Source of the DNA: Candidatus Aenigmatarchaeota archaeon
Lineage (GTDB): Archaea; Aenigmatarchaeota; Aenigmatarchaeia; QMZP01; QMZT01
Length of the DNA stretch: 64,000 nucleotides
Reading direction: 5' to 3'
Assembly: GCA_963726265.1 (NCBI GenBank)
Contig: CAVSBQ010000002.1
Span: 736,001 to 800,000, forward strand
In this document: positions 1 through 62,056 of the stretch, in pieces
Position numbering within the stretch: the stretch's first letter is position 1
Layout of the letters: the number at the start of each line of letters is the position of its first letter
Notes under the pieces: generated by a model
The model's database searches: none
Seen by the model: the letters and a program-made list of their open reading frames with translations, nothing else
What the model was told of the DNA's origin: nothing
Program-made: the position numbers and the translations under genes

Positions 1-177
1 ACGTTCCTGGAAAGGGAGAAGGCGGCGACGGAGAACAAATTGAAGGAGGCGCAGAAAAAATATTTCGAGAAGGGCGCAATCTCCAAAATGGAATACGACA
101 TCACGCTGGACAGGCACAGCAGGAAGCTCGCCGAAATAAAAAAGGAGCTGTCTATACTGAAGGCGAAGGCTCGCTGA
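1..177 (+). CDS. 3' end of a gene truncated by the window edge; helical C-terminus with SHOCT-like motif
   Basis: Frame 1 is open from base 1 to TGA 175-177: TFLEREKAATENKLKEAQKKYFEKGAISKMEYDITLDRHSRKLAEIKKELSILKAKAR. It overlaps the end of the convergent 152..625 gene by 26 nt. Confidence 0.75.
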   Translation, partial: TFLEREKAATENKLKEAQKKYFEKGAISKMEYDITLDRHSRKLAEIKKELSILKAKAR

Positions 178-625
178 CCTTGTTCAGCTCGTAGAATTTC
201 TGCCTGGATATGACTACACCTTTCGTCACGCCGTCCTTTTCCAGCTCCGTCAGGTATTCGCTGCATCTCGTTCTCGACAGATTCAGCTTGACGCTGAGGT
301 CGGACGCTGTCAGCCGCTTGTGCTTGCTGAGCGTCTCTATCACAATCCTTTTCATCTTCAGTTTCCTTATACTGTCGGATTTCGACCGACTCAACGGGAC
401 TAGCGATGACTTCAGGTCATCGACGTTTTTTTCAAGATTTCTTGTGAACTTGCAAATATCGTCAAGACGTTCAGTGATGCCCGAGTTCTTCAGCTCTTCG
501 GCAATCATCTCCCTTATTTTTCCCTTCAGGTATTTTTCGCGCTCCTCTTGAGCGATTTTTGATATGTCTGAGATGTAATTTTTCTTCCCCTTCCCGACCT
601 TCCTGTCCTGCAGAAACCCGAACAT
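152..625 (-). CDS. Winged helix-turn-helix transcriptional regulator with N-terminal coiled-coil
   Basis: C-terminal KRIVIETLSKHKRLTASDLSVKLNLSRTRCSEYLTELEKDGVTKGVVISRQKFYEL has a wHTH pattern. TTTAAA lies 24-29 nt upstream of the ATG. Confidence 0.8.
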   Translation of the reverse strand: MFGFLQDRKVGKGKKNYISDISKIAQEEREKYLKGKIREMIAEELKNSGITERLDDICKFTRNLEKNVDDLKSSLVPLSRSKSDSIRKLKMKRIVIETLSKHKRLTASDLSVKLNLSRTRCSEYLTELEKDGVTKGVVISRQKFYELNKVSEPSPSV

Positions 626-770
626 GCTATTGTATTGTCGATCGACAATTTAAACCTTAGTATAACTGTTAATTTTTTATCCTATATATAATCCGACAGT
701 TACGTATACTATTAGTGTTGTACACTAATGGCCATTAGCGTATGACTAACTTGGGTTGGGTTCAGTTTCT
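626..770. promoter_or_regulatory. Divergent AT-rich promoter region with several dyad-symmetric sites
   Basis: TTTAAA 649-654 and a TATATATA run near 683-690. Perfect palindrome ATTGTCGATCGACAAT 634-649. Inverted repeats TAACTGT/ACAGTTA 663-702 and ATTAGTGT-n3-ACACTAAT 711-729. Palindrome CTAATGGCCATTAG 725-738. Confidence 0.7.
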
Positions 771-39600: not shown

Positions 39601-39624
39601 TGAAAAATGCGCGGCAAAACACAA

Positions 39625-39689
39625 GATTGATTAATTTTCTTTTTTCCGGTTTCCACTACTATTTATTTTATAGTAATTAATTAATTATT
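39625..39689 (+). promoter_or_regulatory. AT-rich spacer with a T-tract (possible archaeal terminator) and a TATA-like element for the next gene
   Basis: TTTTCTTTTTT after the giant gene stop; TTTATTTTATA 17-28 nt before ATG 39690. Confidence 0.45.
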
Positions 39690-41309
39690 ATGGCGGGGAA
39701 AAGGGTGAAAACCACTAGTGTAAAGAAGGCCGCGCCAAAGATCGCGGCAAAAGCGAAGGACAAGGCTTCTTCTAAAGCTTCCAAGATCGTAACAAAAACC
39801 CAGGCAAAAAGCGCGCTTCCTTCTGAGAGCCTTGAGCAGCTGATGCACGAGAAAGAGGAGATACAGGCTCTGCTGTCGTCGCTTGAGGATGCTTACACTG
39901 AGGCGGCGATACTCGAGGACGACTACAACGACATAAAGGCCAAGAACGAGAAGAAGCTCGAGGACATAAGCAGGAAGATAGACATCCTCGCGAAAAGCCA
40001 GCCTGCCGCTGAAATGCCTGCAGTTGATCTGGCGGAGATGGCGAAACCCGCCGCAGCTTTCAGGATGCCGAAGATTCCGGTTTACGAGGAAGCCCCTCCT
40101 GAAGAGGAAGAACCAAAAGTCAAGGAAAAGTCTAAAAAAGAAAAGGCCGCAACCGAGGCGTTAGGCGCAGAGGACCTGAAGAAGCTCGAGGTCGACCTGG
40201 CGGAGAAGATAAGGCAGATGGTCGAGGACATAGGCGCGAAGGTTAGCGAGAAGGACCTGCTGGAGATGAAGAACAGCTTCGCCAAATTCGAGGCCGAGAT
40301 AGACAAGATGAAGGCGCAGGTCGAGGCGGTCAAAGAAGGCAGGAAGGTCGACGACGACAAAATACAGCGGGTCATTGAAGGCCTGGCCGAGGTAAGGACG
40401 ATGGTCTACGGCAGGGAGGCGTCGACCAAGGAGCAGGAGATAAAGTTCGAGAAGGCGATGGACATCATGGGCAGGATAGAGCCGGAGAAGATAATAATGG
40501 AAATCGGCAGGAGGGACAAGGAGATAAGCAATACCGGCCTCCGCATGAGCAAGCTCGAGGAAACGTCAAAGGAGTTCGGCGAGATGCTGAAGAGGATCGA
40601 GACGCTGCTGCGCAACGTCGGAAGCCTCGAGCACGTCATCACCATAAGCAATGAGGCATCCGAGAAGCTCATGATCATGGAAAACATCCAGAGGAGCAAC
40701 CAGAAGATGATGGACAAGATACAGGGCATCTACGCCGAGCTTAGCAAGAGGATGGAGGAATTCATGCTTTACCGCGCGAAACAGGACAGGATAGACGACC
40801 TGATGAACGACGTCATGAAGAACATGGACGACCTGACGACGAGGTCCGCGTATTTCGTGACCAAGGACGATCTCGAGTCGCTCAAGGCGAGCATACAGAC
40901 CACAATCGCCTCAGCGCCGGCTGCGCCGTCGGAGGCTTCGGGCCTGCAGGCGCAGAAGGAAGAGATAGAGATGCTGATGAAGTCCATGGAAGACGAATTC
41001 AAGAGCAGGACCATATCCAAGGAAGAATACGAGAAGATGAAGAAGGCGAACACGGCAAAGCTCATGGAGCTTGAAAGCAAGATAAGGAGCGGAACGGCGG
41101 CTCCGCTGCAGCCTCGCGTCTTCGAGAAACCGAAGCCCGCGAAGTCCGCTCCGAACAAGCCGAAGGAAACCCGGGAGGCAAAGCCGTCGAAAGAGATGAA
41201 AAGCAAGAATGACATGATGCTCAGGGACCTGGAGGACACTTACAGGAAGGGCTTCATCAGCAAGGAAGCTTACGATAAGACGAAGAAGATGATTTTGGGA
41301 AAAAGGTGA
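39690..41309 (+). CDS. Cytoplasmic coiled-coil protein with three SHOCT/CdvA-like helical motifs and a Lys/Ala-rich N-terminus
   Basis: 539 aa, E/K-rich heptads, no TM. Motifs LEDAYTEAAILEDDY, MEDEFKSRTISKEEY and LEDTYRKGFISKEAY. Confidence 0.85.
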   Translation: MAGKRVKTTSVKKAAPKIAAKAKDKASSKASKIVTKTQAKSALPSESLEQLMHEKEEIQALLSSLEDAYTEAAILEDDYNDIKAKNEKKLEDISRKIDILAKSQPAAEMPAVDLAEMAKPAAAFRMPKIPVYEEAPPEEEEPKVKEKSKKEKAATEALGAEDLKKLEVDLAEKIRQMVEDIGAKVSEKDLLEMKNSFAKFEAEIDKMKAQVEAVKEGRKVDDDKIQRVIEGLAEVRTMVYGREASTKEQEIKFEKAMDIMGRIEPEKIIMEIGRRDKEISNTGLRMSKLEETSKEFGEMLKRIETLLRNVGSLEHVITISNEASEKLMIMENIQRSNQKMMDKIQGIYAELSKRMEEFMLYRAKQDRIDDLMNDVMKNMDDLTTRSAYFVTKDDLESLKASIQTTIASAPAAPSEASGLQAQKEEIEMLMKSMEDEFKSRTISKEEYEKMKKANTAKLMELESKIRSGTAAPLQPRVFEKPKPAKSAPNKPKETREAKPSKEMKSKNDMMLRDLEDTYRKGFISKEAYDKTKKMILGKR

Positions 41310-41329
41310 GGTAAATCCGCCATGCGAAG

Positions 41330-44300
41330 TTGTTTTTGGCGTTTGCAATATTGTCCGTCATGGTGCTGGCGAGCATGTCCGGCATCTTTTCTCAGCAATA
41401 CGAGGACAAGTGGTGGGACGCCAACTGGCATTTCAGGGTCGGCATAGAGATAAACAACACGGGCTACAACAGGACTAACTGGACCGTCGAATACGCCATC
41501 AATTTCACCCAGGTCCTCCACAACATGAGCCTCTACGAAACGTTCGACGAGAACTCGACGCGCGTGGTGGAGTATAATTCCAGCGGCTCCATACTGCATG
41601 AAATCCCGTCGCAGTTCGACAAAGGCGACGGTTACGCTGCGGGTACGAACGCGGCCGGAACCGTCGTATTCACCATGAACGGCACCACCGTCGCGAACCA
41701 GAAGCGCTACTTTTACGTCTACTTCGACACGCTTGAGCACGGCAGCAAGGCCGTGGCAAATTACGCCACCGACCTTGTCTACAACTATACCGGCGGCATG
41801 GGGGAATTCAACATAAACAACTCGCTCTTCCGCTGGTGGATGGACACGGAGCGTGGAGAGAACACCTCGGGCATTTACTACGTGAGGAATGTCCGCGAGA
41901 ATACGGATGACGAAAACGAGATACTGAGGGTCAACGATTCCAACAACATGACGGTCGAGTATTCGCAGCTTTCGAACGCGACGGACAGGTTCGGCTTCGA
42001 CTTCAGGAACAACGCGACCTTCAAATACGCGGGCCCGGTCAGGATAGTGGTGGAGCAGCGCGGGGACGAGGTATACTGGAACCAGCCCGACAACAAGACC
42101 AACGAAGGCTACATGATAAAACGCTATACCTTTTACCGCTACAGCGACTGGATTAAAATAGAGCAAATTTACGTCAACAACGCGAGCTACAACATCACGA
42201 GGAACTCGACGGTCGCCGGCGCGCTCGCGCTTGACATTTATTATTCCTTCATGACCTCCGGCTACAGCACCTATTCCAACATGTCGAACACCATCGACCC
42301 AGGCTCCTACGGCTGGGCTTCGGAGGCCACCGGAACATGGTGGATAGGCATACTGAACCTTTACGAGAACGGCACCAGCAACTTCTTCGGCCTCGAGGAC
42401 AGCACGGCAGGAAGGCTGGGCATACAGCTCAACCTGACCAACATAAGCGCCGGCAGCTCAATAAGGCATGTCGCCGCCATCCAGTTCAACGGAAGCGGCC
42501 AGGCAGGCCAGGAAGAATATTTCAGGAACTTCGTTAACCAGAGCATCACTTCGCTTGATATAACAACCCTTGGCGGCGAGGCATGGACGGTCGTTACCGG
42601 CAAAAAATTCTACATGAACGCCACAAACGAGGCAAGCATATTCAACAGGAACGAGAGCATCAGGATATGGGCGAACATCACCGATCACTACAACCTGTCG
42701 AAGTTCGTCAATGCCAGCCTAAACCTCGGAGGCGCGGGCGAACTCAACCTGACGCTTTACGACGACGGCGCGCATGGCGACGGCGGGGCGAACGACAGCA
42801 TATATGCATACACCTACAACCTGTCCGATGCCGCCGCAGTGGGCGTGTGGAACGCGACGTTCAGGGTTTACAACGTGAGCGGCTACCTGCTCAACACGAG
42901 CTCATTAACGTTCAACGTCACCAACGTCTACAACGTCACGGTCAACATCTCGAACCCGACCGGCTTCACAGAAAGGCTCATAAACACGACGGTTTACGTG
43001 AAAAACTTCAGGGGCGACTCGTGGATTACGGGCGCAAGCCTGAACTGCGCTTTCGATTCCACCCCGGTGCCGTCACAGAACATAACTGACAAGGGGAACG
43101 GCACGTACAACGTCCTGTTCACCGCACCGTCTTACGCAGGGCTGTTCACGCTCGCGTGCAACGCGACGAGGAACAACAACACCGGCTACGCCACGGAAGA
43201 GTTCACGTGCGAGACCTACACCACCAACATAACCATAATGCCCACGCCCCAGAATTTCACGGCGGCGAATGTCACGTCCTATTCGAACCAGACCTTCAAC
43301 CTGAGCGTCTTCGCCTTGAACACCGCGAACGGAACGGCGTATGACATGAACCTATCGCTGGTCTTCTCCACACCGAACATAACCGCCAATGTGACGCAGC
43401 AGGGATGCGGCAACGTGTTCATCTCCAAGAACTGCACCAAAACCTTCCAGGTCATAATCACGAGCCTGACGCCCCAAGGCAACTACACGGCAAACATAAG
43501 CGCCTCCTGGAGGAACTCCAACGCGTCTGTCGCAGGCCATAACAGCACCATCATGAACATCACAGTCATGCCGAATCCCATCCTCAACGTTTCAGACACT
43601 TACATGATCGCCCTGATAGCGGCAGGCAAGGTACTCAGGAACATAAAGAACGTCACCGTTTATTCCCTGGGCAACGAGCCCCTCTCCAACGTCAGTTTCA
43701 ATGTTTTCAATTTCGGCAACAACTTCACCTTCGGTTTCGTCCCCGCGAATCTCACCTTGCTCGGAGCCGGGACGTCGCAAAGCGTGGAGATATGGCTCAA
43801 CGCCACCGCGGACACGCCGCCCGGCGAATACAACGGCACCATAAACGTGACGACTTCGAACGACGGCTCAAAGGCCATGAACCTCACCATCGCCGTCTCC
43901 GGAACCAACATGTCGCTGGTGCTTGACAAATACAATTTCACCGCAGAGAACGTGACATGGTACCAGAACCAGAGCTTCCCGCTTTACATCAACACCAGCA
44001 ACATGGGCAACTCGACAGCATACAACGTCAGCATGATGCTCAATTTCTCCGACACCAACATAACTTCCAGCGCAAATACTTATGCCTGCGGCAACGTCCC
44101 CAAAGGCGCGCTTTGCAACGCGTCCTTCGCCATAAACATCCTCAACCGCACCCATTCGGGCAACTACACCATCAACGTCAGCATCCAGTGGGAAGACCCT
44201 GACCAGGGGACTAGCTCCAACACGACTCTCTTCAACATAACAGTCACGTCGCACATAAACCTTTCCATACCGCAGAATTCCATCTCGAACAACGTCACCC

Positions 44301-47248
44301 ACGGGACCGAGAAGGAGATAGGCATCCTCATACTGAACTCGACGGGCAACGACCCCGTGGAGAACATAAACTTTACCGTCTACAACTTCAGCTCTGATTT
44401 CACCTTCGAGTTCATCCCCTCCAGCATCTCCTGGCTCGGAGGCGAATACCCCCAGGGCCTCAAGATAAATGCGACCGTGAGGTATGGCCAGCCGCCCGGG
44501 ACATACGCAGGGATACTCAACGTCACCAGCTCCAACAGCGGCAACAAGGCAATAAACCTCACGCTGGAGGTGCCGACTTCGATGACTTGGAACATGAGCG
44601 CTACCTACTGCGAGAAGGTCGAGTCGCCCGAAGAGGGGACGGCCTGCGAAATCGTGGTCAACAACACGGGCAACGTCATCGTAAACTACAGCATAACGCC
44701 CGTCGCCAATGCGACGAACATGTTCAACTACACGTGGACGAACAAGACCAGCTTCGTCGTCCCCAACGGGACTTTCGTGACCTTCGCCGTCCTTTACAAC
44801 ATAACCAACCAGACCATAAAATTCTACTATGCCAATTACACTGTCGACGCCCTGCAGGGCGGCTCAAGCCCGGACAGCCTGCTGCTGCAGATAATCCTCA
44901 ACCCCTTCATAAAGCCGAACGTCGAGGTTTTCGTCTACCCCAACATGACCGAGCAGACTGATGGGGTGTGGATATACGCCAACGTCACCGACCAGTCGGG
45001 CGCTGGCATAGCCGACGGCAACGTGACCGCGACGGTAAGAAAACCGGACGGCACGAATTCGACGGTGGCCATGCTTTTCTACAGCGGCGTGCACACGGGC
45101 GGCGTTTCAAGATGGAAAATACAATACCCGAGCAACTTCAGCGGCGGCGCGAACACGACGCTCAAGGGCTACTATAACATAAGCATTTTCGCAATCGATG
45201 GCCAGGGCAAGAACACCACACACAATACGACTGCCTTTTTAATATACTATAAGCTCTTTGTCGAACTCAACGCCAGCCAGCACGCATACAGGGGCGATTC
45301 GCTGGAGATAAGGCTCAGGTCTCATGACGCTCTGGGAGCGCCGCTGCCGGGAGCCAGCGTGAATCTCACGCTCACGGACCCCAACGGCGGCAACAAGGAC
45401 TACTACATGTGGGGCGGCAAGTATTTCGTAACGGATTCAAACGGAGACGCGGGAGGCTTTTATCTCATACCGTCGAATGCGATACTCGGCAACTACACCT
45501 TCGCTTCCAATGCCTCATACAACGAGACCACTGTCAGCAGGACGATACAAAACACATCTTCGCTGCAGTTTGACGTGAGGGACGTGAGCGAAGTGTCGGC
45601 GATGGCTGACATTCCCGACCCCGTTTACAGGGACAAGGTGATGCCGATCAGCATCTTCATCCTCGACCACGGCGAATGCGTCCAGACAGAGCCCGACACC
45701 ATAGAGCTCACGATATATTATACCGAGGGCTATTCGCTCCAGCAGTGGAGGAGGCTTACGAAGCTGAACCTTACCCAGAACTCGACATGCTTCTACACGT
45801 ACGGTGAACTCATCGGCAGCAACGTCCTGACAGGCAGTTATCTGGCCGTCCTGAGGGTCGGCTATGGCGACAAGGAGGCATGGGACCTGAAGGCTTTCAG
45901 GATAACTACCGGCGGCCCATACGACGTCGCTGTGAACATGCTGGAGACGTCCGTCCCGAAGGCCGACTACGTCGACTTCGAGCTGCTGCTCACGAACATG
46001 GGCGGCACGACGCCGGACGTCCTTGTCGAATACTGGGTCTCGGGGGCGAATCAGACATGGGATTACAGGTCCGAATCCATCATGGTCAACGCCTATGCGA
46101 ACAGAACGCTGTTGAGGAGCCTCTACATCCGGTCTGACCAGTCGGTCGGCCAGTATTACGTGAACGCGAAGGTCACGTACGACCCGATAAACAACCTTTA
46201 CGCGATTGCAAACTCAAGTTTCACCGTCACTGAGGCCGCTGCAGAACAGCCTCCAGGCGGGGCGCCGGGAGGCGGCGCAGAAGAGGGCGGAGGAGCTGCG
46301 ATTTCTTCCGCGCCGCCCAAGATAGAAATCATACGATACCCGCAGGAGCTCGGCATGGAGCTGGATACGGTAAAATATCCCGTCGTCGAGGTGAAGAACT
46401 CAGGCGGCTCCAAGCTGTATAACGTGACGCTCAGGCTGAGCGGGATTCCCTCGCCGTGGGTACAGGAAATAACGCCGAAGGTCATACCGGAAATCCCGGT
46501 GGGCAACATCTCCATCTTCACCATAACGCTAAAGATTCCGCCAACCGCGGAAGCGAAGGAATACGCGGGCCAGATAATCGCCGACGCGAACATCACGAAA
46601 GACGAGAAGACGTTCTCGCTCACGCTTTTCACGACCCGCGCGCAGCTCATCAGCTGGGAGATAGACAGGCTGAAGAAGGCGCTGCAGCAATTCGAGGTCG
46701 ACGTCGAAAGCGCGAAGAAGGCCGGCAAGAACGTTAAGGACGTCACCCCATACATCGACCAGATAAAGGAGCAGATAAGGCTCGCCGAGGACTACCTGGG
46801 AAAGAAGATGTATGACGAGTCGCTCAGCGCGGTCCAGAGCGGCTGGAGCATGCTCGAAAAGGCGAGATACCTTCTGGCTCAGGCGCCGTTCACCGAGATA
46901 CTTATAGAGACGATATTCCCGCCGTGGCTCATCGCCCTGCTGGTCGTGCTCGTGGTCGCGATAGCCATACTGCTGTTCTTCGTGAGGAGGATGAAGGGCG
47001 TTTTCGACAGGATATTCAGGATGCAGGCGCCCGGAGGCGGCGGGGCGGCGAAGCCTTCGGTCATGGTCGAGAAGATGAAGGAGCGGGAGAACCTGGGAAA
47101 GGAAGAGATGAACATCAGAAAGGTCATGGGCCTGCTGGAGAGGCAGTACAAGGAAGGCCTCATAACCGAAAACGCCTACATGAGCCTCAAGGCAAGGAAC
47201 GAGGAGAAGCTTGCGAAAATCGAGCAGATGAAAGCGGCGATGAAGTGA
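41330..47248 (+). CDS. Large (~1,970 aa) secreted, C-terminally membrane-anchored surface glycoprotein; true start probably ATG 41322
   Basis: Hydrophobic signal FLAFAILSVMVLASM. WWDANWHFRVGIEI resembles a DUF2341-like start, and LYDDGAHGDGGANDSIY follows. Ig-like repeats, G/P/A linker, TM WLIALLVVLVVAIAILLFFV (~46925-46984), and cytoplasmic tail LERQYKEGLITENAY. Confidence 0.9.
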   Translation: MFLAFAILSVMVLASMSGIFSQQYEDKWWDANWHFRVGIEINNTGYNRTNWTVEYAINFTQVLHNMSLYETFDENSTRVVEYNSSGSILHEIPSQFDKGDGYAAGTNAAGTVVFTMNGTTVANQKRYFYVYFDTLEHGSKAVANYATDLVYNYTGGMGEFNINNSLFRWWMDTERGENTSGIYYVRNVRENTDDENEILRVNDSNNMTVEYSQLSNATDRFGFDFRNNATFKYAGPVRIVVEQRGDEVYWNQPDNKTNEGYMIKRYTFYRYSDWIKIEQIYVNNASYNITRNSTVAGALALDIYYSFMTSGYSTYSNMSNTIDPGSYGWASEATGTWWIGILNLYENGTSNFFGLEDSTAGRLGIQLNLTNISAGSSIRHVAAIQFNGSGQAGQEEYFRNFVNQSITSLDITTLGGEAWTVVTGKKFYMNATNEASIFNRNESIRIWANITDHYNLSKFVNASLNLGGAGELNLTLYDDGAHGDGGANDSIYAYTYNLSDAAAVGVWNATFRVYNVSGYLLNTSSLTFNVTNVYNVTVNISNPTGFTERLINTTVYVKNFRGDSWITGASLNCAFDSTPVPSQNITDKGNGTYNVLFTAPSYAGLFTLACNATRNNNTGYATEEFTCETYTTNITIMPTPQNFTAANVTSYSNQTFNLSVFALNTANGTAYDMNLSLVFSTPNITANVTQQGCGNVFISKNCTKTFQVIITSLTPQGNYTANISASWRNSNASVAGHNSTIMNITVMPNPILNVSDTYMIALIAAGKVLRNIKNVTVYSLGNEPLSNVSFNVFNFGNNFTFGFVPANLTLLGAGTSQSVEIWLNATADTPPGEYNGTINVTTSNDGSKAMNLTIAVSGTNMSLVLDKYNFTAENVTWYQNQSFPLYINTSNMGNSTAYNVSMMLNFSDTNITSSANTYACGNVPKGALCNASFAINILNRTHSGNYTINVSIQWEDPDQGTSSNTTLFNITVTSHINLSIPQNSISNNVTHGTEKEIGILILNSTGNDPVENINFTVYNFSSDFTFEFIPSSISWLGGEYPQGLKINATVRYGQPPGTYAGILNVTSSNSGNKAINLTLEVPTSMTWNMSATYCEKVESPEEGTACEIVVNNTGNVIVNYSITPVANATNMFNYTWTNKTSFVVPNGTFVTFAVLYNITNQTIKFYYANYTVDALQGGSSPDSLLLQIILNPFIKPNVEVFVYPNMTEQTDGVWIYANVTDQSGAGIADGNVTATVRKPDGTNSTVAMLFYSGVHTGGVSRWKIQYPSNFSGGANTTLKGYYNISIFAIDGQGKNTTHNTTAFLIYYKLFVELNASQHAYRGDSLEIRLRSHDALGAPLPGASVNLTLTDPNGGNKDYYMWGGKYFVTDSNGDAGGFYLIPSNAILGNYTFASNASYNETTVSRTIQNTSSLQFDVRDVSEVSAMADIPDPVYRDKVMPISIFILDHGECVQTEPDTIELTIYYTEGYSLQQWRRLTKLNLTQNSTCFYTYGELIGSNVLTGSYLAVLRVGYGDKEAWDLKAFRITTGGPYDVAVNMLETSVPKADYVDFELLLTNMGGTTPDVLVEYWVSGANQTWDYRSESIMVNAYANRTLLRSLYIRSDQSVGQYYVNAKVTYDPINNLYAIANSSFTVTEAAAEQPPGGAPGGGAEEGGGAAISSAPPKIEIIRYPQELGMELDTVKYPVVEVKNSGGSKLYNVTLRLSGIPSPWVQEITPKVIPEIPVGNISIFTITLKIPPTAEAKEYAGQIIADANITKDEKTFSLTLFTTRAQLISWEIDRLKKALQQFEVDVESAKKAGKNVKDVTPYIDQIKEQIRLAEDYLGKKMYDESLSAVQSGWSMLEKARYLLAQAPFTEILIETIFPPWLIALLVVLVVAIAILLFFVRRMKGVFDRIFRMQAPGGGGAAKPSVMVEKMKERENLGKEEMNIRKVMGLLERQYKEGLITENAYMSLKARNEEKLAKIEQMKAAMK

Positions 47249-47430
47249 CGCCGCAACACTAAATACCCATAATAAATAGGACATCCGTGCAAAAAAGCAG
47301 CTGATTTTTAGGCCGTTCCAACAAACGGTTAATGTTCCAGGAAGGGGGGTGGGTATTTAATAACCCCCCGGGAATAGTATATTTATATAAGTAATGGCCC
47401 TTTCATACAGGAAAGTAATGGCGTGGTCGC

Positions 47431-48093
47431 ATGAGAACCAAGCAGAAGATAACGGACTACAAGAATTTCTGGCTCATATGGATAAACTGCGCCGGCGGCG
47501 AAAAAGGGATATCGCTTTTTGAGATACAGACCAGCTGGGACGTGAAGACGAACTACCTCTACCACAACGAGGTCGGCCTTAAAAGCCCGCTCTTCCGCAG
47601 CATGACGAGGGAGAATTACATAACCAAGGAAGGCAAGCGGCTGAAGGCAAAGTTCGAGTGGATTCCCGCGTATGTCAGGGAGAAATACCCCGCGAAGGAA
47701 ACGAACGAAAGCTGGCTGCCCGATTTCCTGATAAGAACCAGGTGGCCGGCCGTCCAGAAATTCATGGAGAAATACCATGCCGTCCTTTTCGACGTGAAAA
47801 ACCTGAAGATTCTATACAGGAACGACAAGGAGCTCGTGGGGCGGTATGGCCCGCAGATATTCGCGGACGTTCTCCTTTACGTGCTCTTCTCGAACCTCAG
47901 GGTCTTCTGCAAGAAATACGAAGCCGACGTCGTGCTCCGCATGATTACGACGTCCATATCAATCGCCTGCGAGAGGGACATAATGAATTACATGCGCGTG
48001 ATCGACTCGAAACTCGGGAAGGTGGTCGACTTCCCCGTGCTCGTTCGCGACGAAAACGAGCTCTCGAGGATGCTGTGCGCACTCAAGTGGTGA
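47431..48093 (+). CDS. Hypothetical protein (220 aa)
   Basis: ATG-started ORF with codon usage like its neighbours and an upstream TATATTTATATAA. No motif recognised. Confidence 0.75.
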   Translation: MRTKQKITDYKNFWLIWINCAGGEKGISLFEIQTSWDVKTNYLYHNEVGLKSPLFRSMTRENYITKEGKRLKAKFEWIPAYVREKYPAKETNESWLPDFLIRTRWPAVQKFMEKYHAVLFDVKNLKILYRNDKELVGRYGPQIFADVLLYVLFSNLRVFCKKYEADVVLRMITTSISIACERDIMNYMRVIDSKLGKVVDFPVLVRDENELSRMLCALKW

Positions 48094-48153
48094 AGCAACG
48101 GCCAACGAAGCAAAGATTTAAGAAATAAAAACAAGGTATACGCAGAGGGTAAT

Positions 48154-48924
48154 ATGAGCAGGGTAATAGGCATAATTTCCGGCAAGGGTGGGGTTGGCAA
48201 GACGACCGTAGTGGCGAATCTCGGCTCCATCCTCGCGCAGAAGTTCAAGAAAGACGTCATCGTCATCGACTGCAACGTCTCGACGTCGCATCTCGGGCTC
48301 TACCTGGGCATGTATTACACGCCCGTCACTTTGAACCAGGCCCTTACAGGCGAGGCGAAAATAGAGGATGCCATTTACAATTATCACATAAGCGGCTTGC
48401 GCGTCATACCAGCGTCGCTTTCGTTCAGCGACCTGAAGGGCGTGGACATCGCGCGCCTGAGGAACACGATAAAGAAACTCTTTGGCAAGGCGGACATCAT
48501 ACTACTCGACGCCGCTCCCGGCCTCGGCAGGGAGGCGATGGCGACGGTCCGCGCGTCGGACGAGGTCATATTCGTGAACACGCCGTTCGTGCCGTCGACG
48601 ATGGACATCATAAAATGCCATCAGGTGGCGAATGAGATGGGCGTCAAGCCGCTGGGAGTGATACTCAACATGGTGGGCAGGGAGAAATACGAGCTCACGC
48701 CCAAGGAGGTCGAGGAGCTCATAGAGCTGCCCGTCATATCCAGCATACCCGTGGACAAGAACGTGTTGCGCAGCCTCGCGCTCAAGATGCCAGTCGTCCT
48801 TTTCTCGCCGGGTTCGCCTTCGAGCAAGGAATTCGTCCGCCTGGCCGCGCACCTGCTCGGCGAGAAGTACGAGCCCGAGGGGCTTTTCACAAACTTCTTC
48901 AGGATGTTCTCCAGAAAGAAGTAA
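48154..48924 (+). CDS. minD: MinD/ParA-family ATPase (archaeal MinD type)
   Basis: Deviant Walker A SGKGGVGKTT, IILLDAAPGLG and LGVILNMV. C-terminal amphipathic helix GLFTNFFRMFSRKK. Confidence 0.92.
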   Translation: MSRVIGIISGKGGVGKTTVVANLGSILAQKFKKDVIVIDCNVSTSHLGLYLGMYYTPVTLNQALTGEAKIEDAIYNYHISGLRVIPASLSFSDLKGVDIARLRNTIKKLFGKADIILLDAAPGLGREAMATVRASDEVIFVNTPFVPSTMDIIKCHQVANEMGVKPLGVILNMVGREKYELTPKEVEELIELPVISSIPVDKNVLRSLALKMPVVLFSPGSPSSKEFVRLAAHLLGEKYEPEGLFTNFFRMFSRKK

Positions 48925-48952
48925 TTTATAGAAACCTCGCGAAATTATCTAT

Positions 48953-49219
48953 ATGATGTATGAGATTGCTGTCATAGCTCTGCTCGCGGTAATCTGCTTT
49001 TTATTATACAAGTTATATAGAATAAAATATACGGTTGGGGCAGGCAGAACGGGGTTTATACCCGAGAATCTGAAGAAGGACCTCGATGACATCGTTCCGG
49101 AGAGAAAAAGGGAAACGGAGATGAGGTTCAGCGACATTAATGCTAGAATTTCCGGGCTCGAACGAAGGCTCGAAAAGAGTGAAAGGTTTGTCGAAAAGCT
49201 TATCGAAGAGCTTGGTTAA
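48953..49219 (+). CDS. Small single-TM protein with cytoplasmic coiled-coil
   Basis: N-terminal IAVIALLAVICFLLY followed by INARISGLERRLEKSERFVEKL. Confidence 0.75.
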   Translation: MMYEIAVIALLAVICFLLYKLYRIKYTVGAGRTGFIPENLKKDLDDIVPERKRETEMRFSDINARISGLERRLEKSERFVEKLIEELG

Positions 49220-49224
49220 TCGGG

Positions 49225-51171
49225 GTGTCTTGCATGGCTAAAAAAACGAAGGGTGAATTCGAAAAAATGGGCGATCTGGGCAAGGGTGTCGACGAATCCG
49301 AGGGCGACGCCGAAAAAAACATAGAAGAGATAGAAAATTTCGACGCAACCAAGCCGCAGGGAAAGGCTTCCGAAGAGGCCGGCGAGGAAACCGGAGGGAA
49401 GAAAAAGAAGAAGCGGGCGACCGAGGACGTCGATGCTCTAAGGGAAGAGCTTGAGCAGGAGAAGGAAAAATCAAAGGGCCTCGCTGCGATAATAGAGAAA
49501 GTCTCAGCCGCTTCAGGCGACGAAGAGCCGGAGGAAGAAAGAAGCTCCAGTAATAATAGTGATAATTCTGCCGAAGTCGATTCAAAAATAAGGTCAATCG
49601 AAGGCAAGATAAACGACCAGGTCCAGACGCAGATTAAGGACGTGCGCACTGCCATAACCGCGATGGCCTCGAAGATAGACGAGGTTTCCAAGGCGGAAAA
49701 ATCCGAGAAGGCGGGCAGCAAGGTCAAGGACATGGTGGACAAGCTCGAGGCGGACACGTCCAAGAGGATATCCGACCTTCAGGAAGAGATAAGGAAGATG
49801 GTCGAGCGGATAGAGCAGCCGAGGAAGGAGGAAGAGGTGTCCAAAGGACTGGCGGTCTTCGGCGGGCGCGTCGACCTGAAGAACGACATACTCGAGATAA
49901 AAAGCTCCATAAAGGAACTCGAAAAAAGCATCCGCGAGGTGAAGGAAGAAGCCGACACAAGGATAACGAGGGTGAGGGAGCAGATAAAAGTCCTTGAGCG
50001 CATGCCCATGCTGGAGGAAAAAATCGAGGGCCTCACGGAGCGCATGAGCCCCGCCAACATCGAGAAGCTGAAAAAATTCGTATTTTCCGCCGACGAGATA
50101 ACGGGCGAGATCATACCCAACGAGGTCGAGAAGAAGCTTTCCAAGGACCTGACGCCCGTGTTCAACGACATGCGCGGCATCAGGAGCGACATAGAGAAGC
50201 TCAGCGAGAACATAAAGACGCTCTTCAACGAGACAAACTACTTCAAGGGAGAGATAAAGACGCTCTACAAGATGGGCGATTATATTTCCGAGCTGCAGGC
50301 CGAGAAGGAGAAGACGCACAGCAAGATAAACGAGAAGGAAGCGAATCTAATCTCGATGATGAACAAGCTCGAGGCGGTCTTGCAGAAGAAGGCGGACCTC
50401 ATGAACGAGCGGCTTGAGAAATTCGACAGGATGTTCACGGGCAAGCTTGAGGACAAGGCCAAGGAGTTCTTCGACGAGTTGACAGAATCGAAGTTCCTCG
50501 AGCTCGAGGACAGGACGGAGAAGAACCTCGCGGTCTCGCGGGCGAAGGTCAACGACATGTTTTCGAAGTTCGTCCAGTTCCAGAACGTCGTCAACCCGAC
50601 GCTTTCCCTGATAAAGGAGGAGATAGAAAAGACGAACACCCGCCTGGATAAGCTGAAGGTGAAGCACGACGAGTTCGAGAAGGACATAGAGGAGAACGCG
50701 AAGGACATGTTCAACGACATAGTGGGGCCCCAGATAAAGGCCATAAGCAACGAAACTGCGAAGTTCACCAAGGACGTCAGCGGCCGCCTCGAGGACTTCG
50801 AGGCGGAGTTCGTCCAGTTCCAGAACGTCGTCAACCCTACCCTCACCCTCTTCAAGAACGACATCTCGAAGCTCGACACGAAAATCGAGAAGCAGAAGAC
50901 GCGCCAGGACTCGTTCAAGGAGGACGTCAAGGAAATCGCTGACGTCAGGAAGGAAATCGAGGGCATGAGGGAATGGGTGAAGTATTTCGAGGCGAAGCAG
51001 AAGGAGAACGAGAAGCACATGCTCGTCCTCGGCAGCAAGCTTGACGAGACCGTCGCCGAATTCAACGCCATCGTCAAGGAAACCATTGCGGAGAAGAAGA
51101 AGTTCGAGGACGAAAACCGCAAGCAGAGGGAAAAGATAAATATACTTCTTAAAGAGCTGAAAAGCGGATGA
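49225..51171 (+). CDS. Long coiled-coil protein (likely start ATG 49234)
   Basis: 648 aa, E/K-rich. Internal 80-aa repeat (FVQFQNVVNPTL at 50569 and 50809). The stop overlaps the next start (ATGA). Confidence 0.85.
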   Translation: MSCMAKKTKGEFEKMGDLGKGVDESEGDAEKNIEEIENFDATKPQGKASEEAGEETGGKKKKKRATEDVDALREELEQEKEKSKGLAAIIEKVSAASGDEEPEEERSSSNNSDNSAEVDSKIRSIEGKINDQVQTQIKDVRTAITAMASKIDEVSKAEKSEKAGSKVKDMVDKLEADTSKRISDLQEEIRKMVERIEQPRKEEEVSKGLAVFGGRVDLKNDILEIKSSIKELEKSIREVKEEADTRITRVREQIKVLERMPMLEEKIEGLTERMSPANIEKLKKFVFSADEITGEIIPNEVEKKLSKDLTPVFNDMRGIRSDIEKLSENIKTLFNETNYFKGEIKTLYKMGDYISELQAEKEKTHSKINEKEANLISMMNKLEAVLQKKADLMNERLEKFDRMFTGKLEDKAKEFFDELTESKFLELEDRTEKNLAVSRAKVNDMFSKFVQFQNVVNPTLSLIKEEIEKTNTRLDKLKVKHDEFEKDIEENAKDMFNDIVGPQIKAISNETAKFTKDVSGRLEDFEAEFVQFQNVVNPTLTLFKNDISKLDTKIEKQKTRQDSFKEDVKEIADVRKEIEGMREWVKYFEAKQKENEKHMLVLGSKLDETVAEFNAIVKETIAEKKKFEDENRKQREKINILLKELKSG

Positions 51172-54100
51172 GCGAACTGACAGAACTCGAGGAAGCGATG
51201 AGGAGCCTCAAGAAGGACAATCTTGAGAAGAAGAGGCTGGTCGCGGAACTCGAGGACGAGAAGAAATACATCGAGGAGCGGAACCGCTACCTCATCGAAA
51301 AGCTCAAGCAGGCCGGCGTGCTTTACGAGGAGTCGGGAAAGCGGCTCATGGATTTCGTTAACGAGAACGTTAAGCCGCTCAAGGCTAAGCTTTCCGAGTT
51401 CGAAGCTATGGCGCAGAAAACCAAGGAATACGAAAAATCCATAGCCGTCGCGCTGAAGCGAATCACTGAATTCGAAGCCATTATCGGCGACTTCAAGAAC
51501 GAGGTCATCAAGGGCGATGAGAAGGAGGCCGGCCTTTCCGGAGAGCTAGGCGAGATGAAGAAGGCGCTTGCCGAGATGGCGAAAAGGATAGCCAGAGTGC
51601 AGACCTTCGGCTCCGAGGAGCTTGGCGAGAAGGTCGAGGAGATTAAAGCGAAGTTCGGCGAGGACACGAGGAAGATAGAGGACGAGTTCAGCGTGCTCAA
51701 GCTGGGCGTGGGCAGCGCGATAGACAACTTCAAGAAGGAGTTCGAACGCCAGGCGAACGCCCTCCGCAACGAGATGGAGAAGGTCGACATAAAGAAGGCC
51801 AAAGAGCTGGGCGACGCGCTCGCGCAAGTGGCAGAGGAGCTGAACAAAACCAAGACCGATTTCTCGAAATCGATGGTTATGCTTGAAAAGTCAGTCGAGA
51901 AGCTCGACATGAAGAAGACGAAGGAAATGGACACGACTCTCACGACCCTTTCATCCAGCCTCGACGAACGCTTCGGCAACCTGGCGGCGGACGTCGAGAA
52001 GCGCGTCGAGCAGGCGGAGAGCGAGCTCAAGGGGTTCAGGGTCGACCTCGAAAAGACGCTGGGGAAAACCAAGCTCGAGGCGCGGGACTTCATGGACGTG
52101 AAGGCGAAGGAGTTCGACTCGCTTCTGCAGGAACTCAAGGCGAAAATGAACGAGCAGCTCAAGGTTTCTTCCGAGCAGTGGAGCAAGAACCTCGGCACCC
52201 TCAGGACGGATCTCATAGTCACCAAGAAGGAAGTTGAAAAGCTCATAGCCACGATAAACAGGAAAGTCGAGCTGGGCGAGGAGAGAAGGGAGAAGAAGCT
52301 CGAAGCCGGCTTCGCGCACATGAACGCCTCTGTCGCCAAAAGGCTCGACGACGAGACGGAGCAGATTTACGGCCAGCTGGGCGACATAACCGGCAGCATC
52401 GAGGACCTGAAGGCGAACCTCGACAAGAAGGTCATGGACACGGAAAAGGAGATGGCGAGGTTCAAGGTGGAACTCGAGAAAACGCTGGGAAAAGCGAAGG
52501 TCGATACGCGCGACTTCGTCGCGTCCAAGGCGAAGGAGTTCGATGCCGTCCTGGCGGGGATGAAGGCCAAGGTCGACGATCAGGTGGCGGCCTCGGCATC
52601 TGTCTGGGACAAGAACCTCGGCGCGCTGAGGTCGGATCTGGTGAGCACGCAAGAGGAAGTCGAGAAGCTCATCGGCTCGATAAACAGGAAAGTCGAGCTC
52701 GGCGAGGAGCGGAGGGAGAAGAAGCTCGACGCCGCAACCTTAGCGATACAGACCTCACTTTCCAAAAAAATCGACGCGGCCGCCGACGAAATTTACGCCA
52801 AGGTCGACGACATAGACGGGAACGTCGATGCCTTTAAGGAAGGCACGACCAAAACGATAGACTCTCTGAGGAAGGCAATCGATCTCGGAGAGGTGAAGAG
52901 AAAAGAGGACATAGACAAGATAATAAAGAACTTCATGGTTGTCAAGGGCGAGGTGGACGAGAAGATACGCGAGGTTTCAGCCGGGCTTGATAAATTTTCA
53001 AAGACTTCCGAGGTTCTCCGCCGCCAGATAACTAAGGAAAGCCTAGCCGGCGTGCAGGAAAGGGTCAAGGCGATAATCGCCGAGCTCGAGAAGAAGTTCG
53101 AGGTAGTCGAGGACGGGATCATTGACAAGATAGCGACCCTCGAAAGCGACGTGGACGAGCTTAATGCCGGCTTCCAGGGCATCGCCAACTCCGTCAAGAC
53201 GGAAACTGAAAGGAAGCTGGATTTTCTCAGGAAGGAGTTCGAGAAGCGCGACATAGCGAGGGATAAAGGCGTCGACTCGTTCGCCAAGACGCTCCAGAAG
53301 ACGGTCGACGCGAAATTCGACTCGCTCATCACGAAAATGGACGCGAGGCTCAAGGAGACGGAGGACGAAACGAATTCCGTCAGGAAAGACGTCGACAGCT
53401 TCACAGTCGACCTCAGCGAGAAGTTCGACTCCATCATAAGCAGCAAATCGAAAAATTTCGAGAAGATGATGGAAGCGCTTGTCACCCAGACGAAAGCCAT
53501 ACAGAAGGACGTCAACCTTACCATAAACGATTTCAAGAAAGAAGTCGAAAGAAGCGATATCCACAAGAAGGCCGAGATAGAGAGGTTCCTCAAGGAATTC
53601 GTCGTCGAGAGGGGCAGGATAGAGGAGAAGATAAAGCAGGTCGATGCGAAGCTTTCCGAGTTCTCGGCGATGAGAAAAGAGTTGAAGAAGGAGATATACA
53701 ACGAGAGCCTTGCCGGCGTAAACCAGCGGGTAAAGGACATAATAGAAGGCATAGAGGAGAGGTTCGGGAACTCGCGCAATGAAATGGAAAACAGGGTCTC
53801 GGAGCTGATGAAGAGCGTCGACATGAGGGTCAGGGAGACCGAGGCCAGCCTTAACGGCATAAAGGCCGAAATGGGCAGGACGACCGGAAAGCTGCGCGAC
53901 GACGTGGACAAGATTACGGGCAAGAAGGCCGGCGAGGTCGACAGGGTCGCGGCAAAGCTGAGGACTGACGTGGACGTAAGGGTAAAGGCAACGACGTCCG
54001 AGCTTTACGAAAGCATGGACGCGGTAAAGAATGACATAGTCATGCTGAAAGGCGGCCTGGAGAAACAGGTCGCATCACTCAGGAAGGAGATAGAGCTGGG

Positions 54101-54993
54101 CGAGGCCAAGAGGAGCGACAAGGTCGAGAAAACGAAAGCCGCCGCTGACAGGGAGGTAAAGGTCAGGCTCGACGAATTCTCTGCCAGAACCGAGGCCAGG
54201 ATAAGGGCCTCCGAAGCCGAGCTCAAAGCCCTCAGGGCAGAGCTGGCCGGCGTTGTGGAAAAGCTGAGGGACAGGTTCGATGAAATAATAGAGGAGAAGT
54301 CAGAGACGTTCGAGACGACCATGGATGGCGTGGTCCAGAAATCCGAGAAGGCGAAAAAGGACGCGGAAGCGCTGGTGGAAAACCTGAAGGCGAAATTCCA
54401 GGTCAGGAGAGAAGGAAAGATGGAGGGAGATAGACAAGTCACTCAAAGAGCTCATGTTTGCCAAGGGAGAGATGGAGAGAAGGCTCAAGGAAATCGACGC
54501 TGAAATGCTCAAATTCTCAGAAACCAGGGCGTCTCTCAAGGCCGATGTCATGAAAGACACCTCGTCCCTGATGGACAACAGGCTCTCCTCGTTCTCCGAT
54601 TACAAAAAGACCGAGATAACCGATGCGAAGAAGGCGCTCAAGGGAGATATGCTTGAAATGCGCGATACCGTGACGAAGCTCCTGGACAAGCTGGAAAGGC
54701 TTAACGAGAAAACGAACGCGACAAGGGAAGATCTGGTCACAGTCAAGAGAGCAAGGGTGCTGGTCATAGAGAACGTGAAATCCATAAGCAAGACCGTCGA
54801 AGAGAATGTCGACGTCCGCCTCAGGGATTTCATGAAGGACATGGAGAAGCGCATGCGCACGCAGGAGGCGGCGCTCAACTCGAAGATGGAGACGGTGGAA
54901 AAGAAAGTGGCTTCTGTTTCTGAAAGCGTTTCAAAAGCCAACAAGGAGAAGGAAGAGCAGCTTGAAGAACTTCTCAGGCATGTGGAATCATGA
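51168..54993 (+). CDS. Very long (~1,270 aa) repetitive coiled-coil protein; ORFs 51168..54503 and 54454..54993 joined by a frameshift near 54400
   Basis: The alternate frame reads ERWREIDKSLKELMFAKGEMERRLKEID, matching internal repeats KEDIDKIIKNFMVVKGEVDEKI and KAEIERFLKEFVVERGRIEEKI. ATGA overlaps at both ends. Confidence 0.8.
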
Positions 54994-56183
54994 ACGGCAA
55001 GGTAGACAAGATAAAGGCAAGGATAAACGAGATAAAACGCGAGAAGGAAGAGCTTAGGCAGAAGCATGATTACATAATCGAGCAGGTGAAGAAGGCGTCT
55101 GATGCGAACGCGAAGGATGTGCAGTTCCTTAAAAACGAAGTCACGGGCATCCAGAACAGGCTGGAAAGGAAGGACGAGAGCATGACTGGCATGCGCTCGT
55201 TCATGAACTCGCTCGATAAAAAGCTTTCCGTCCTCGAGAGCAGGCACGCCGCCATGAAAGAGCGGATGGAAGAGGAGATGAAAATCGCCGAAAGGGAGTT
55301 GGGTTCCGAGCTCAACGAAAAGGCCAAGGCGATAAACTTGAACATGTCCGCCCAGCTCAGGGAATCGCTTTCGAAGTCTCTCAGGGATGTCCAGGCCGTC
55401 AAGGACGCGCTAAAGAAGGCCGAAGAAAGGAACGGCGAACACGACACGGACATCTCCAGGCTGATAGCGGAAAGGAACAACATAAGCAAGGCGCTCTCCG
55501 AACTTGAGGGCAGGAACGATGCCATAAAAAATACCATCAGTGAGAAAATAAGCGCCATAGAAAAGGCGATGATGACGGAAATAGCCAATGCCAAGGCGCT
55601 TGAAGCCCGCCTGGACAAGGACGTGAAGGATTTCGAGAAGTTCGCGAGCGGCCAGAAATCGAGGATGGCGGAATTCGAGGCGAGCGTGCTCGGCAAGATA
55701 GACATGTTCGCCCTGAACAGGGAAAACCTCAAAAGAGATTTCGCCTCGCTGTCGACGGACTTCAAGAACCTGCTGGCTCACATAGATTCCATAAAGGAAA
55801 AATACGCCTTTGTCGAGAACCGTCTAAAAAATGCGGAGCTGGGCCTCGAGAATTTCAAGAAGAGCAGCGACGAGCTTTTTGCGGAGCTGCGCTCGGAGCA
55901 GAAGGGCTTCAGGGAGGATATTGTAGCGAAGCTCAACGAGGCGAACGAAAAAATCGTCGGCCGCCTGGCTCAGGACGAAAGCAAGAGCGCGTCCGAAATC
56001 GCGAAGCAGGCCGATGAAATAAAGGTCTTCCGGGCGCACATGACCCAGTTCATAAACGATTTCGTGAACAACTACGAGAAGCGCTTCGAGAAGATGAAGA
56101 GCGACATGGACCAGGCCCTCGGGACAATGGAGCAGCACGCGAAGGAGCAGGCACGCCAGCCCAGAGCGGTGATATTCGAATAA
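54990..56183 (+). CDS. Coiled-coil protein (397 aa)
   Basis: Continuous heptad-like E/K/L pattern and no TM. ATGA overlap with the upstream gene. Confidence 0.85.
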   Translation: MNGKVDKIKARINEIKREKEELRQKHDYIIEQVKKASDANAKDVQFLKNEVTGIQNRLERKDESMTGMRSFMNSLDKKLSVLESRHAAMKERMEEEMKIAERELGSELNEKAKAINLNMSAQLRESLSKSLRDVQAVKDALKKAEERNGEHDTDISRLIAERNNISKALSELEGRNDAIKNTISEKISAIEKAMMTEIANAKALEARLDKDVKDFEKFASGQKSRMAEFEASVLGKIDMFALNRENLKRDFASLSTDFKNLLAHIDSIKEKYAFVENRLKNAELGLENFKKSSDELFAELRSEQKGFREDIVAKLNEANEKIVGRLAQDESKSASEIAKQADEIKVFRAHMTQFINDFVNNYEKRFEKMKSDMDQALGTMEQHAKEQARQPRAVIFE

Positions 56184-59387: not shown

Positions 59388-59816
59388 ATGGCAGCAGACG
59401 CAATCACCAATCTGGTTTCAAGCCTGGGTGTCGATTTCACCCATCCGATAACACTGGCCATAAACCTGATATTGTCCACCATAATCGGGGGCATCGTGCT
59501 GCTGATACTGGTGGAGATATTCGGCAAGAAATTCAAGGAAAGCGTCCATCCTGTAAATGCGTTCGTGGTGGTCCTGATAATAAACATCATCAACCTGCTC
59601 GGGGTCACGGCTTTTATAATGCCCTACATATCATCCGTTCCGCTCGTCGGCGTTATTCTCCCGGCCGTGATATGGGTAGTGCTCATAAAGCTGTTCTTCA
59701 AGGAAATGAAAATCACGCACGCTTTGCTGGTGGGCATAATAGGATACGCGCTCAGCATATACGTCATACCGTATCTTGTCGCACTGGCCAGCGGTTTCGT
59801 GCCTAGCTTCGGTTGA
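59388..59816 (+). CDS. Hypothetical integral membrane protein (about 4 TM)
   Basis: 142 aa, almost entirely hydrophobic helices. Confidence 0.8.
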   Translation: MAADAITNLVSSLGVDFTHPITLAINLILSTIIGGIVLLILVEIFGKKFKESVHPVNAFVVVLIINIINLLGVTAFIMPYISSVPLVGVILPAVIWVVLIKLFFKEMKITHALLVGIIGYALSIYVIPYLVALASGFVPSFG

Positions 59817-61056: not shown

Positions 61057-61085
61057 GATGAGAAATGACAGCTTTGGTTTAAAAA

Positions 61086-61994: not shown

Positions 61995-62056
61995 GTTAAC
62001 AAATAGAGATTATTCAAAAGTTTTTTATTTGTGTATTGAGCCTAATCGGCATCATT

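Follow-up and report, generated by a model that had tools for sequence, protein, structure and literature searches.

We analysed a stretch of 64,000 nucleotides from the genome of a Candidatus Aenigmatarchaeota archaeon (GCA_963726265.1, contig CAVSBQ010000002.1, positions 736,001 to 800,000; G000:C2:736001-800000 in our numbering), hereafter the window; the genome is 1.13 Mb in size and 88% complete. The window holds a gene cluster in which a giant surface protein with a cytoplasmic ATPase domain is followed by a near-constant partner protein, a second surface protein and a group comprising a winged-helix protein, a MinD ATPase and coiled-coil proteins, which we call the add-on (Table 1). Published giant adhesin-ATPases had been treated as nearly stand-alone genes, and this cluster supplies a candidate parts list for the way in which DPANN archaea hold and draw on their hosts. 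The list has a hierarchy, with an ATPase-partner pair, a second surface protein apparently tied to it by a motif, and an optional MinD/coiled-coil module.

Gene content and layout of the cluster

According to the open reading frames, every gene between 777 and 56183 is on the + strand, and the genes are separated in order by 89, 20, 182, 60, 28, 14, -4 and -4 bases, the last two values being ATGA overlaps, and no metabolic Pfam family was found among them. The original prediction, made from the sequence letters, had described such a co-oriented run with short spacers or ATGA overlaps, no metabolic gene and a divergent helix-turn-helix (HTH) gene at its head, and the frames and Pfam searches bear this out. 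The 182-base gap 5' of gene 47431 (genes without a name are called by their first position) contains an AT-rich TATA-like box that recurs in relatives, and the run may therefore comprise two or more transcripts. The divergent gene at 152-625 likely controls the cluster. In 10 of 11 relatives, selected by where the giant or 47431 lies and regardless of the regulator, its homologue is divergent and no more than about 3 kb from the 5' end of the giant, and four more relatives picked by the regulator itself also show it divergent at the giant's 5' end; it is present in 30 of 61 relatives.

Table 1. Features of the cluster, with positions in the window (aa, amino acids; pLDDT, predicted local distance difference test)
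Feature	Position	Strand	Basis or description
Divergent regulator, C-terminal winged helix	152-625	-	Pfam HTH_24, 34 bits (cut-off 21.9)
Giant surface protein	777-39600	+	~12,900 aa across assembly indels; from N to C: winged helix, signal/anchor helix, sequon-rich ectodomain, C-proximal membrane region, HerA-type ATPase, helical tip
Giant's cytoplasmic HerA/FtsK-superfamily ATPase domain (DUF87)	38527-39600	+	Pfam DUF87 and HerA_C over cut-off
Near-constant partner (39690)	39690-41309	+	Cytoplasmic helical core (~residues 185-400), three SHOCT-like repeats
Second surface protein	41330-47248	+	~1,970 aa; signal peptide, immunoglobulin (Ig)-like domains, one membrane helix, SHOCT-like cytoplasmic tail
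Winged-helix and helical-domain protein (47431), add-on marker	47431-48093	+	Model pLDDT 88
Archaeal MinD	48154-48924	+	TIGR01969, 236.8 bits (cut-off 201.75)
88-aa protein, N-terminal membrane helix and short coiled coil	48953-49219	+	Hydropathy
Long cytoplasmic coiled-coil protein 1	49234-51171	+	30% K+E, no membrane helix
Long coiled-coil protein 2, apolipoprotein-like repeats	51168-54993	+	One gene, frameshifted near 54400
Coiled-coil protein 3	54990-56183	+	N-terminus related to that of protein 2

The giant surface protein and its ATPase domain

The giant adhesin-ATPase of the original prediction is present, but what had been read as several frames is one gene, since the 777-39600 span (12,940 codons) is split by single-base assembly insertions. 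Seven long frames from 756 to 39600 overlap or abut where the frame switches. The corresponding region of L051, whose ATPase is 96% identical, is free of stops over 3,691 codons and colinear with 28470-39597, and a member of the same family (G014) has a single frame of 14,525 aa with the same winged-helix and signal-helix start and the same ATPase end. The breaks were also checked against independent short-read contigs from four public runs, one of them largely 99% identical. The extra bases at 1965 and at 14334 are each missing from the contigs of three of the four runs; those at 2278-2338 are missing in X2 contigs, with one place also missing in X3, and those at 26696, 28222, 28329 and 29902 are missing in X2, that at 28329 in X3 as well. 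At 26696 the X1 and X3 contigs span the place with no gap listed, and the breaks near 15680, 16190 and 36100-36700 fall outside the part of the short-read comparison that was shown. The window has over a dozen frame breaks, for some of which, not every one, a correction is seen, and these might be read as decay of the gene into a pseudogene in this genome. We consider such decay very improbable, because the checkable breaks are single extra bases missing in independent short-read contigs, one run being of near-identical DNA, and the frame of a close relative is open.

Relatives carry intact giant frames of ~8,400-14,500 aa that end in the same membrane-anchored HerA-type ATPase; among the 150 ATPase matches listed, 20 lie in frames of 8,399-14,526 aa, all with at least 58% identity. 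This identity is our own cut for a "giant-type" ATPase, and a few such matches lie in frames of ~730 aa. These giants rank among the longest archaeal proteins, and archaeal genes of more than 10,000 aa are described as rare in the accessible part of a recent report (10.1101/2023.11.21.568195). N-glycosylation sequons number 5-6 per 100 residues in the ectodomain, in which a motif also recurs at multiples of ~335 residues. Among Ig-type Pfam families, MG2 and NPCBM_assoc matched over cut-off and Big_1 and Big_7 under it, and the first 1,000 aa of the fragment starting at 2378 had no solved-structure match. An Ig-like domain is ~4 nm long, and if the ectodomain consists of ~110 such domains, the stalk could reach 0.4-0.5 micrometres.

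Other observations concern the ends and the relatives of the giant. A K-S-x(1-5)-G-Q start followed by a hydrophobic stretch recurs at 1040-1130 of the window and at the 5' ends in L063, L187-L190 and L193-L196, on giants and on short secreted genes preceding them. It resembles the G-Q starts of the pilin-like genes at 62057-63264. Although a site like that of signal peptidase I comes after it, it may represent a class III (prepilin-type) signal. Depending on the genome, the N-terminal winged helix is part of the giant, part of a short upstream gene or free-standing. About 20 kb past the cluster and outside the window (G000:C2 812435-820628) lies a frameshifted paralogous stretch of the giant's repeats.

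The ATPase domain forms the last 357 residues of the giant, with Walker A, Walker B and arginine-finger motifs. Over 81 aligned rows, the G and K of Walker A, the D of Walker B and the RE-RKWG and SQ motifs are invariant, and the E of Walker B is conserved in 78. The model of the domain (pLDDT 93) has three helices at domain residues 292-356, and its best structural match is HerA (4d2i; Z 25.8, root-mean-square deviation (rmsd) 3.1, 259 residues aligned), followed by DndH (Z 24.1), VirB4 (22.8) and TrwB, FtsK and EccC (17-19; EccC 17.0). The domain is far below all NCBIfam cut-offs, the best match being CedD with 39 bits against 600 and the HerA family scoring 31.5 bits against 800. A contact-dependent import of DNA or nucleotides like that of crenarchaeal Ced, in which the giant would be the tether and 47431 would bind the incoming DNA, would agree with the DNA translocase HerA as best structural match, with CedD as best NCBIfam match and with two winged-helix domains in the cluster. 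However, we judge it quite improbable in view of that low CedD score, of a domain of 357 aa against 460-600 for HerA chains, with much of the helical insertion missing, and of a cluster with no CedA-like multi-helix channel and no nuclease.

The core pair and the second surface protein

The partner 39690 belongs to a family with no Pfam family over cut-off and weak SHOCT matches in 5 of 39 members, and a search of the ESM Atlas with its core returned only unnamed Nanobdellota/Aenigmatarchaeota clusters (0.87-0.90). A member lies within 2 kb downstream of 77 of the 78 giant-type ATPase matches, the exception being a sequence that stops at a contig edge, and directly downstream of at least 48 of 72 more distant paralogous ATPase matches, a lower bound set by the 150 matches listed for each search (ATPase and 39690). 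Among 274 genomes of the phylum, the ATPase domain occurs in 123, the partner in 136, both in 119 and neither in 134. Fisher tests on genome counts of this kind exaggerate the association, the genomes being kin, and we place no weight on them.

The pair was also found in a metagenome scan with a 22-protein alignment, several members of which are labelled Woesearchaeota. The best 80 of 519 matches gave 78 loci, which carry no taxon names and which we call Woesearchaeota-type; 19 of them are too short downstream, and the 39690 core lies within 3 kb downstream of the ATPase in 49 of the remaining 59. The core pair is thus kept across two DPANN lineages, Aenigmatarchaeota and the Woesearchaeota-type loci. 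The trees of the ATPase and the partner have 32 of 43 well-supported splits in common, whereas label shuffling gives at most one; such agreement can arise from kinship alone and does not imply co-evolution. Complex prediction of the ATPase domain with the 39690 core gave a score of 0.00, uninformative either way.

ATPase homologues under shorter ectodomains carry the source labels Woesearchaeota, Nanoarchaeota and Micrarchaeota, and the ATPase and partner sit under very different ectodomains, from ~700 to 14,500 aa. This range would suit a pair that exports, assembles or tensions the giant and other envelope proteins, as a cell-wall-like coat or particle anchor without host transfer, as would the match of the fold to the secretion ATPases VirB4 and EccC and the neighbouring genes, which mostly encode surface proteins. 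Such a role appears improbable to us, because the giant has its own N-terminal signal helix, so that no special exporter is needed for membrane passage, and because the stalk is costly, with 39 kb making up more than 3% of a 1.1-Mb genome.

A profile of the tail of the second surface protein matches 40 of 41 Aenigmatarchaeota members of the 39690 family through the SHOCT-like motif, and neither this motif nor the second surface protein was found in the 78 Woesearchaeota-type loci. The motif is therefore common to tail and partner and missing where the protein itself is missing, which suggests a motif-to-motif link between the two proteins. In relatives, the start of the second surface protein (41306-41330 in the window) is a GTG beside or overlapping the partner's stop; here an in-frame stop follows that GTG, possibly another assembly error.

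Several Woesearchaeota-type loci (L101, L113, L119, L125, L137, L177 and L178) have a gene order of their own, beginning with a small gene that we take to be ribbon-helix-helix-like, a surface protein of ~1,000 aa and the ATPase-bearing surface protein, and continuing with a small gene, the 39690-family core and often a surface protein of 2,200-2,700 aa. Seven of these 2,200-2,700-aa proteins share a ~230-aa MG2-containing module with the giant.

The add-on module

The N-terminus of 47431, which had been listed as an unassigned hypothetical, is predicted to have a winged-helix fold, its model aligning best with an ArsR-like winged helix (Z 7.6, a middling score; rmsd 2.6, 74 residues aligned, residues 4-87). 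Structure comparison barely covered the C-terminal part, Foldseek gave no match for 47431 at E<=0.001, and the ESM Atlas gave no family (best 0.81). MinD 48154 shows in its sequence a deviant Walker A (KGGVGKT) and a Phe/Lys-rich C-terminus, and likely ends in an amphipathic membrane-targeting helix. In the tree, the MinD copies linked to the cluster in this order group as a single clade (support 0.96), separate from the other MinD of the genome, and homologues of the 88-aa protein follow MinD in most stretches examined.

All three long coiled-coil proteins are rich in lysine and glutamate and have no membrane helices. Protein 1 was found in 35 of 61 relatives. The frames 51168-54503 and 54454-54993, previously taken for separate genes, correspond to a single frame of 1,096-1,387 aa in three relatives, and the N-terminal profile of this protein 2 matches in 39 of the 274 genomes. 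The N-termini of proteins 3 and 2 align over 74 columns with an hhalign probability of 94.6%, although coiled coils can align by composition. Homology between the 39690 core and coiled-coil protein 1 was also considered; the alignment was weak (57.9%) and it is not claimed. Literature searches, which were weak on subscription papers, found no description of the 39690 partner or of the add-on.

Conservation and distribution of the cluster

Conservation of the gene neighbourhood, the check proposed with the original prediction, was assessed in 20 stretches downstream of the ATPase from this order. The exact order of partner, second surface protein, 47431, MinD and coiled coils is kept in 14 of them, which exceeds chance; two of the other six have 47431 and MinD inverted in place, one is interrupted and three end too soon. 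Of another 20 stretches, 19 of them from other orders, 19 have the partner behind the ATPase, 17 have the second surface protein no more than 20 kb from the ATPase and 15 have some MinD; long coiled coils behind MinD occur in four. Three genomes of another order (G176, G178 and G179) have the whole gene set in shuffled order, and in G110 and G117 the 47431 gene lies at the giant's 5' end.

Both a single query and a profile placed 47431 in 50 of the 274 genomes. A giant-type ATPase is present in 38 of these 50, and 47431 is present in each of the 28 genomes of this order that carry a giant; in most relatives, the MinD/coiled-coil block is thus not unlinked from or without the adhesin-ATPase. 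The 12 genomes with 47431 and no giant-type ATPase are mostly fragmented bins, and five of them hold a clear piece of the second surface protein, while in G042 part of an ATPase lies at the edge of a contig. In G008 (92% complete) none of the six cluster genes sought gave a match, and the glmS flank leads into 12.8 kb of unrelated genes. Two further candidates for loss were set aside: G051 was dropped as a decayed cluster, with joins made of N flanking the piece, and G003, of the same genus, was not counted because the flanking glmS is missing along with the cluster genes sought and the bin may not include this region.

A second conserved surface cluster occurs in L095 (10055-19998), L078, L082, L086, L090 and L097 and was not found in G000. 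It consists of paired ~295-aa secreted proteins, several Ig-like membrane proteins, a ~790-aa protein and another MinD; in other orders it comes after the second surface protein, and in G044 it flanks the add-on.

Neighbouring genes

Beyond the cluster, the - strand carries at 56523-57449 a gene whose product joins an HTH domain to an outer domain resembling an S-layer protein (Pfam S_layer_C over cut-off); the gene stays beside glmS in relatives. At 59803-64000, also on the - strand, are a MiaB-like radical S-adenosylmethionine gene, an unassigned gene of 302 aa and several pilin-like genes in a row, of which one or more is apparently frameshifted (~63090-63264). Further surface-protein frames lie directly upstream of the regulator, outside the window (G000:C2 733007-737174). 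In L047, L067, L074, L081, L083, L100 and L179, genes that we labelled from their sequence starts as KaiC/RAD55-like, response-regulator and sensor genes repeatedly occur beside or inside the cluster.

A proposed host-contact apparatus

Considering the linkage, fusion, motifs, fold and nested distribution described above, we tentatively propose, at somewhat less than an even chance, that the conserved Aenigmatarchaeota cluster encodes a host-contact apparatus whose core is fixed and whose positioning module is optional. We infer that the ATPase domains would form a ring, as HerA does, which would bundle several giant stalks that reach and grip the host cell and would pump a polymer (protein or nucleic acid) across the host contact. 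The 39690 protein would serve as the cytoplasmic collar or adaptor of the ring, and in Aenigmatarchaeota its SHOCT-like arms would tie in the second surface protein by binding the same motif on that protein's tail. In the add-on, MinD and the small membrane protein, together with the long coiled coils, would make up a landmark and scaffold attached to the membrane, which would place the apparatus at one site, with 47431 acting as a regulator or DNA link. A single polar attachment organelle is a plausible outcome.

Several observations weigh against this proposal. The cluster has no multi-helix membrane channel, which the pump would need unless the giants' helices form it. The accessible text of Hamm et al. 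(2019; PMC6642349), who described giants of a similar design, reports no SPEARE-like sequences in Nanoarchaeota, where attachment organelles were imaged. Neither 47431 nor the gene of long coiled-coil protein 2 was seen in 35 of the 73 giant-bearing genomes, where divergent add-on forms could be missed, as the coiled coils of G178 and G179 were, and MinD and 47431 were found in none of the 78 Woesearchaeota-type loci. Two genomes with 47431 and no giant-type ATPase found, G048 (6 contigs) and G269, look like real exceptions, and in at least seven genomes (G044, G035, G042, G032, G260, G261 and G126) the add-on is at least 20 kb from the giant or on another contig, behind unrelated genes. Finally, 47431 likely has its own promoter at the TATA-like box, and four FtsZ/tubulin-family genes in the genome are another possible client of MinD. 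Taken with the co-occurrence described above, the giant has no need of the add-on, while the add-on seems to need the giant. The idea of one apparatus is supported in that the genes travel together, but not as an indivisible machine.

The same absences, together with the promoter, the FtsZ family genes, splits and inversions in family f5 and the add-on of G044, which adjoins a different surface-protein cluster, would also be expected of two separate neighbouring systems: a SPEARE-like adhesin-ATPase (compared below) with its partner and the second surface protein, and a MinD/winged-helix/coiled-coil module for division, shape or chromosome anchoring. Their linkage would then only reflect the clustering of envelope genes. 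A winged-helix gene beside a ParA/MinD ATPase is also the pattern of archaeal segregation cassettes. However, a division or segregation module is expected to be near-universal, yet 47431 and the long coiled coil occur in only 50 and 39 of the 274 genomes, almost all within the range of the giant, and adjacency survives the gene shuffling in another order. We therefore regard two systems as unlikely, though as an explanation to be taken seriously.

Returning to the host-contact apparatus, a bolder form of the proposal, which we consider doubtful as a whole, is that the giant ATPase and the 39690 collar are the core of a DPANN-wide contact-dependent transport machine, and that in Aenigmatarchaeota the MinD, winged-helix and coiled-coil cytoskeleton makes of it a single polar feeding organelle with a stalk of ~0.4-0.5 micrometre. 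If true, this would be an undescribed class of archaeal secretion or uptake apparatus, with the cluster as its full parts list. Expression and testing of the small cytoplasmic pieces would not require a culture of the organism.

Comparison with known systems

The giant's ATPase has in common with HerA of Sulfolobus solfataricus (PDB 4d2i) and with VirB4, TrwB, FtsK and EccC a RecA-like core with Walker A, Walker B and an arginine finger, but differs from them in being compact and joined through a membrane helix to a giant ectodomain. No HAS-barrel match was obtained, and no nurA, mre11, rad50 or type IV secretion genes were found nearby. Channel subunits of Ced or type IV secretion systems were likewise not found, and no protein of the cluster has more than two predicted membrane regions.

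MinD4 of Haloferax volcanii positions archaella and chemosensory arrays, according to the accessible part of its description (10.1101/2020.04.03.021790). The MinD of the cluster resembles it as an archaeal MinD with a likely membrane-targeting helix. The known cargoes of MinD4 are not evident here, however, because no CheW or archaellin was found in this 88% complete genome, and the candidate cargo is the giant adhesin. Bacterial polar hubs include Scy-ParA of Streptomyces and DivIVA-MinD-RacA of Bacillus. Long coiled coils and an HTH protein beside MinD are reminiscent of these hubs, a likeness by description.

The attachment organelle of Nanobdellota, as far as the accessible portions of the reports describe it (PMC11104419; PMC11420986; 10.64898/2026.06.04.730037), is defined by cryo-electron tomography as a cone, a portal and a filament located where the cell touches its host. 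A cell has no more than one large contact structure, together with a thin filament several hundred nm long and filaments in the cytoplasm. The organelle comes from a different lineage, its proteins are not assigned in those portions and nothing links it to this cluster, but its scale would fit an extended giant stalk.

The closest known design is that of the SPEARE proteins of Nanohaloarchaeota, which the original prediction overlooked. The accessible part of Hamm et al. (2019; PMC6642349) describes these proteins, the proteomic detection of a nanohaloarchaeal giant of this design, and comparable intracellular portions in Aenigmarchaeota, Woesearchaeota and Micrarchaeota. Reva et al. (2023; PMC10266531), in the part available, reread the giants as an Ig stalk, a membrane helix, a VirB4/TraG-like ATPase and a coiled tip, proposed them to be "straws" and disputed the SPEARE protease domain. 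Our giant is likewise a very long, mostly extracytoplasmic chain with an N-terminal signal, a C-proximal membrane helix and a C-terminal cytoplasmic VirB4/TraG/HerA-like ATPase with a coiled tip. The very long ectodomain of SPEARE is Ig-like, and that of our giant has its ~335-aa repeat spacing with scattered Ig-type Pfam matches.

On the other hand, our giant has an N-terminal winged helix and is longer, at ~12,900 aa (relatives to 14,526) against 9,409 aa for the largest in the available part of PMC10266531. The laminin-G and serine protease domains of SPEARE had no Pfam match at E<=0.01 in the window fragments or the G014 giant, although divergent copies could be missed. Downstream, in place of the second VirB4/TraG ATPase of the locus that Reva et al. 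describe in that part, the 39690 partner follows the giant-type ATPase. Because laminin-G, protease and downstream second ATPase were not found and the comparison, with no nanohaloarchaeal giant among the sequences retrieved, is by description and not by sequence, the giant is SPEARE-like and is not filed as a SPEARE member. The second surface protein and the MinD/coiled-coil module have no mention in the accessible parts of PMC6642349 and PMC10266531. While the giant-ATPase design is known from nanohaloarchaea, the multi-gene arrangement of partner, second surface protein and add-on appears to be new.

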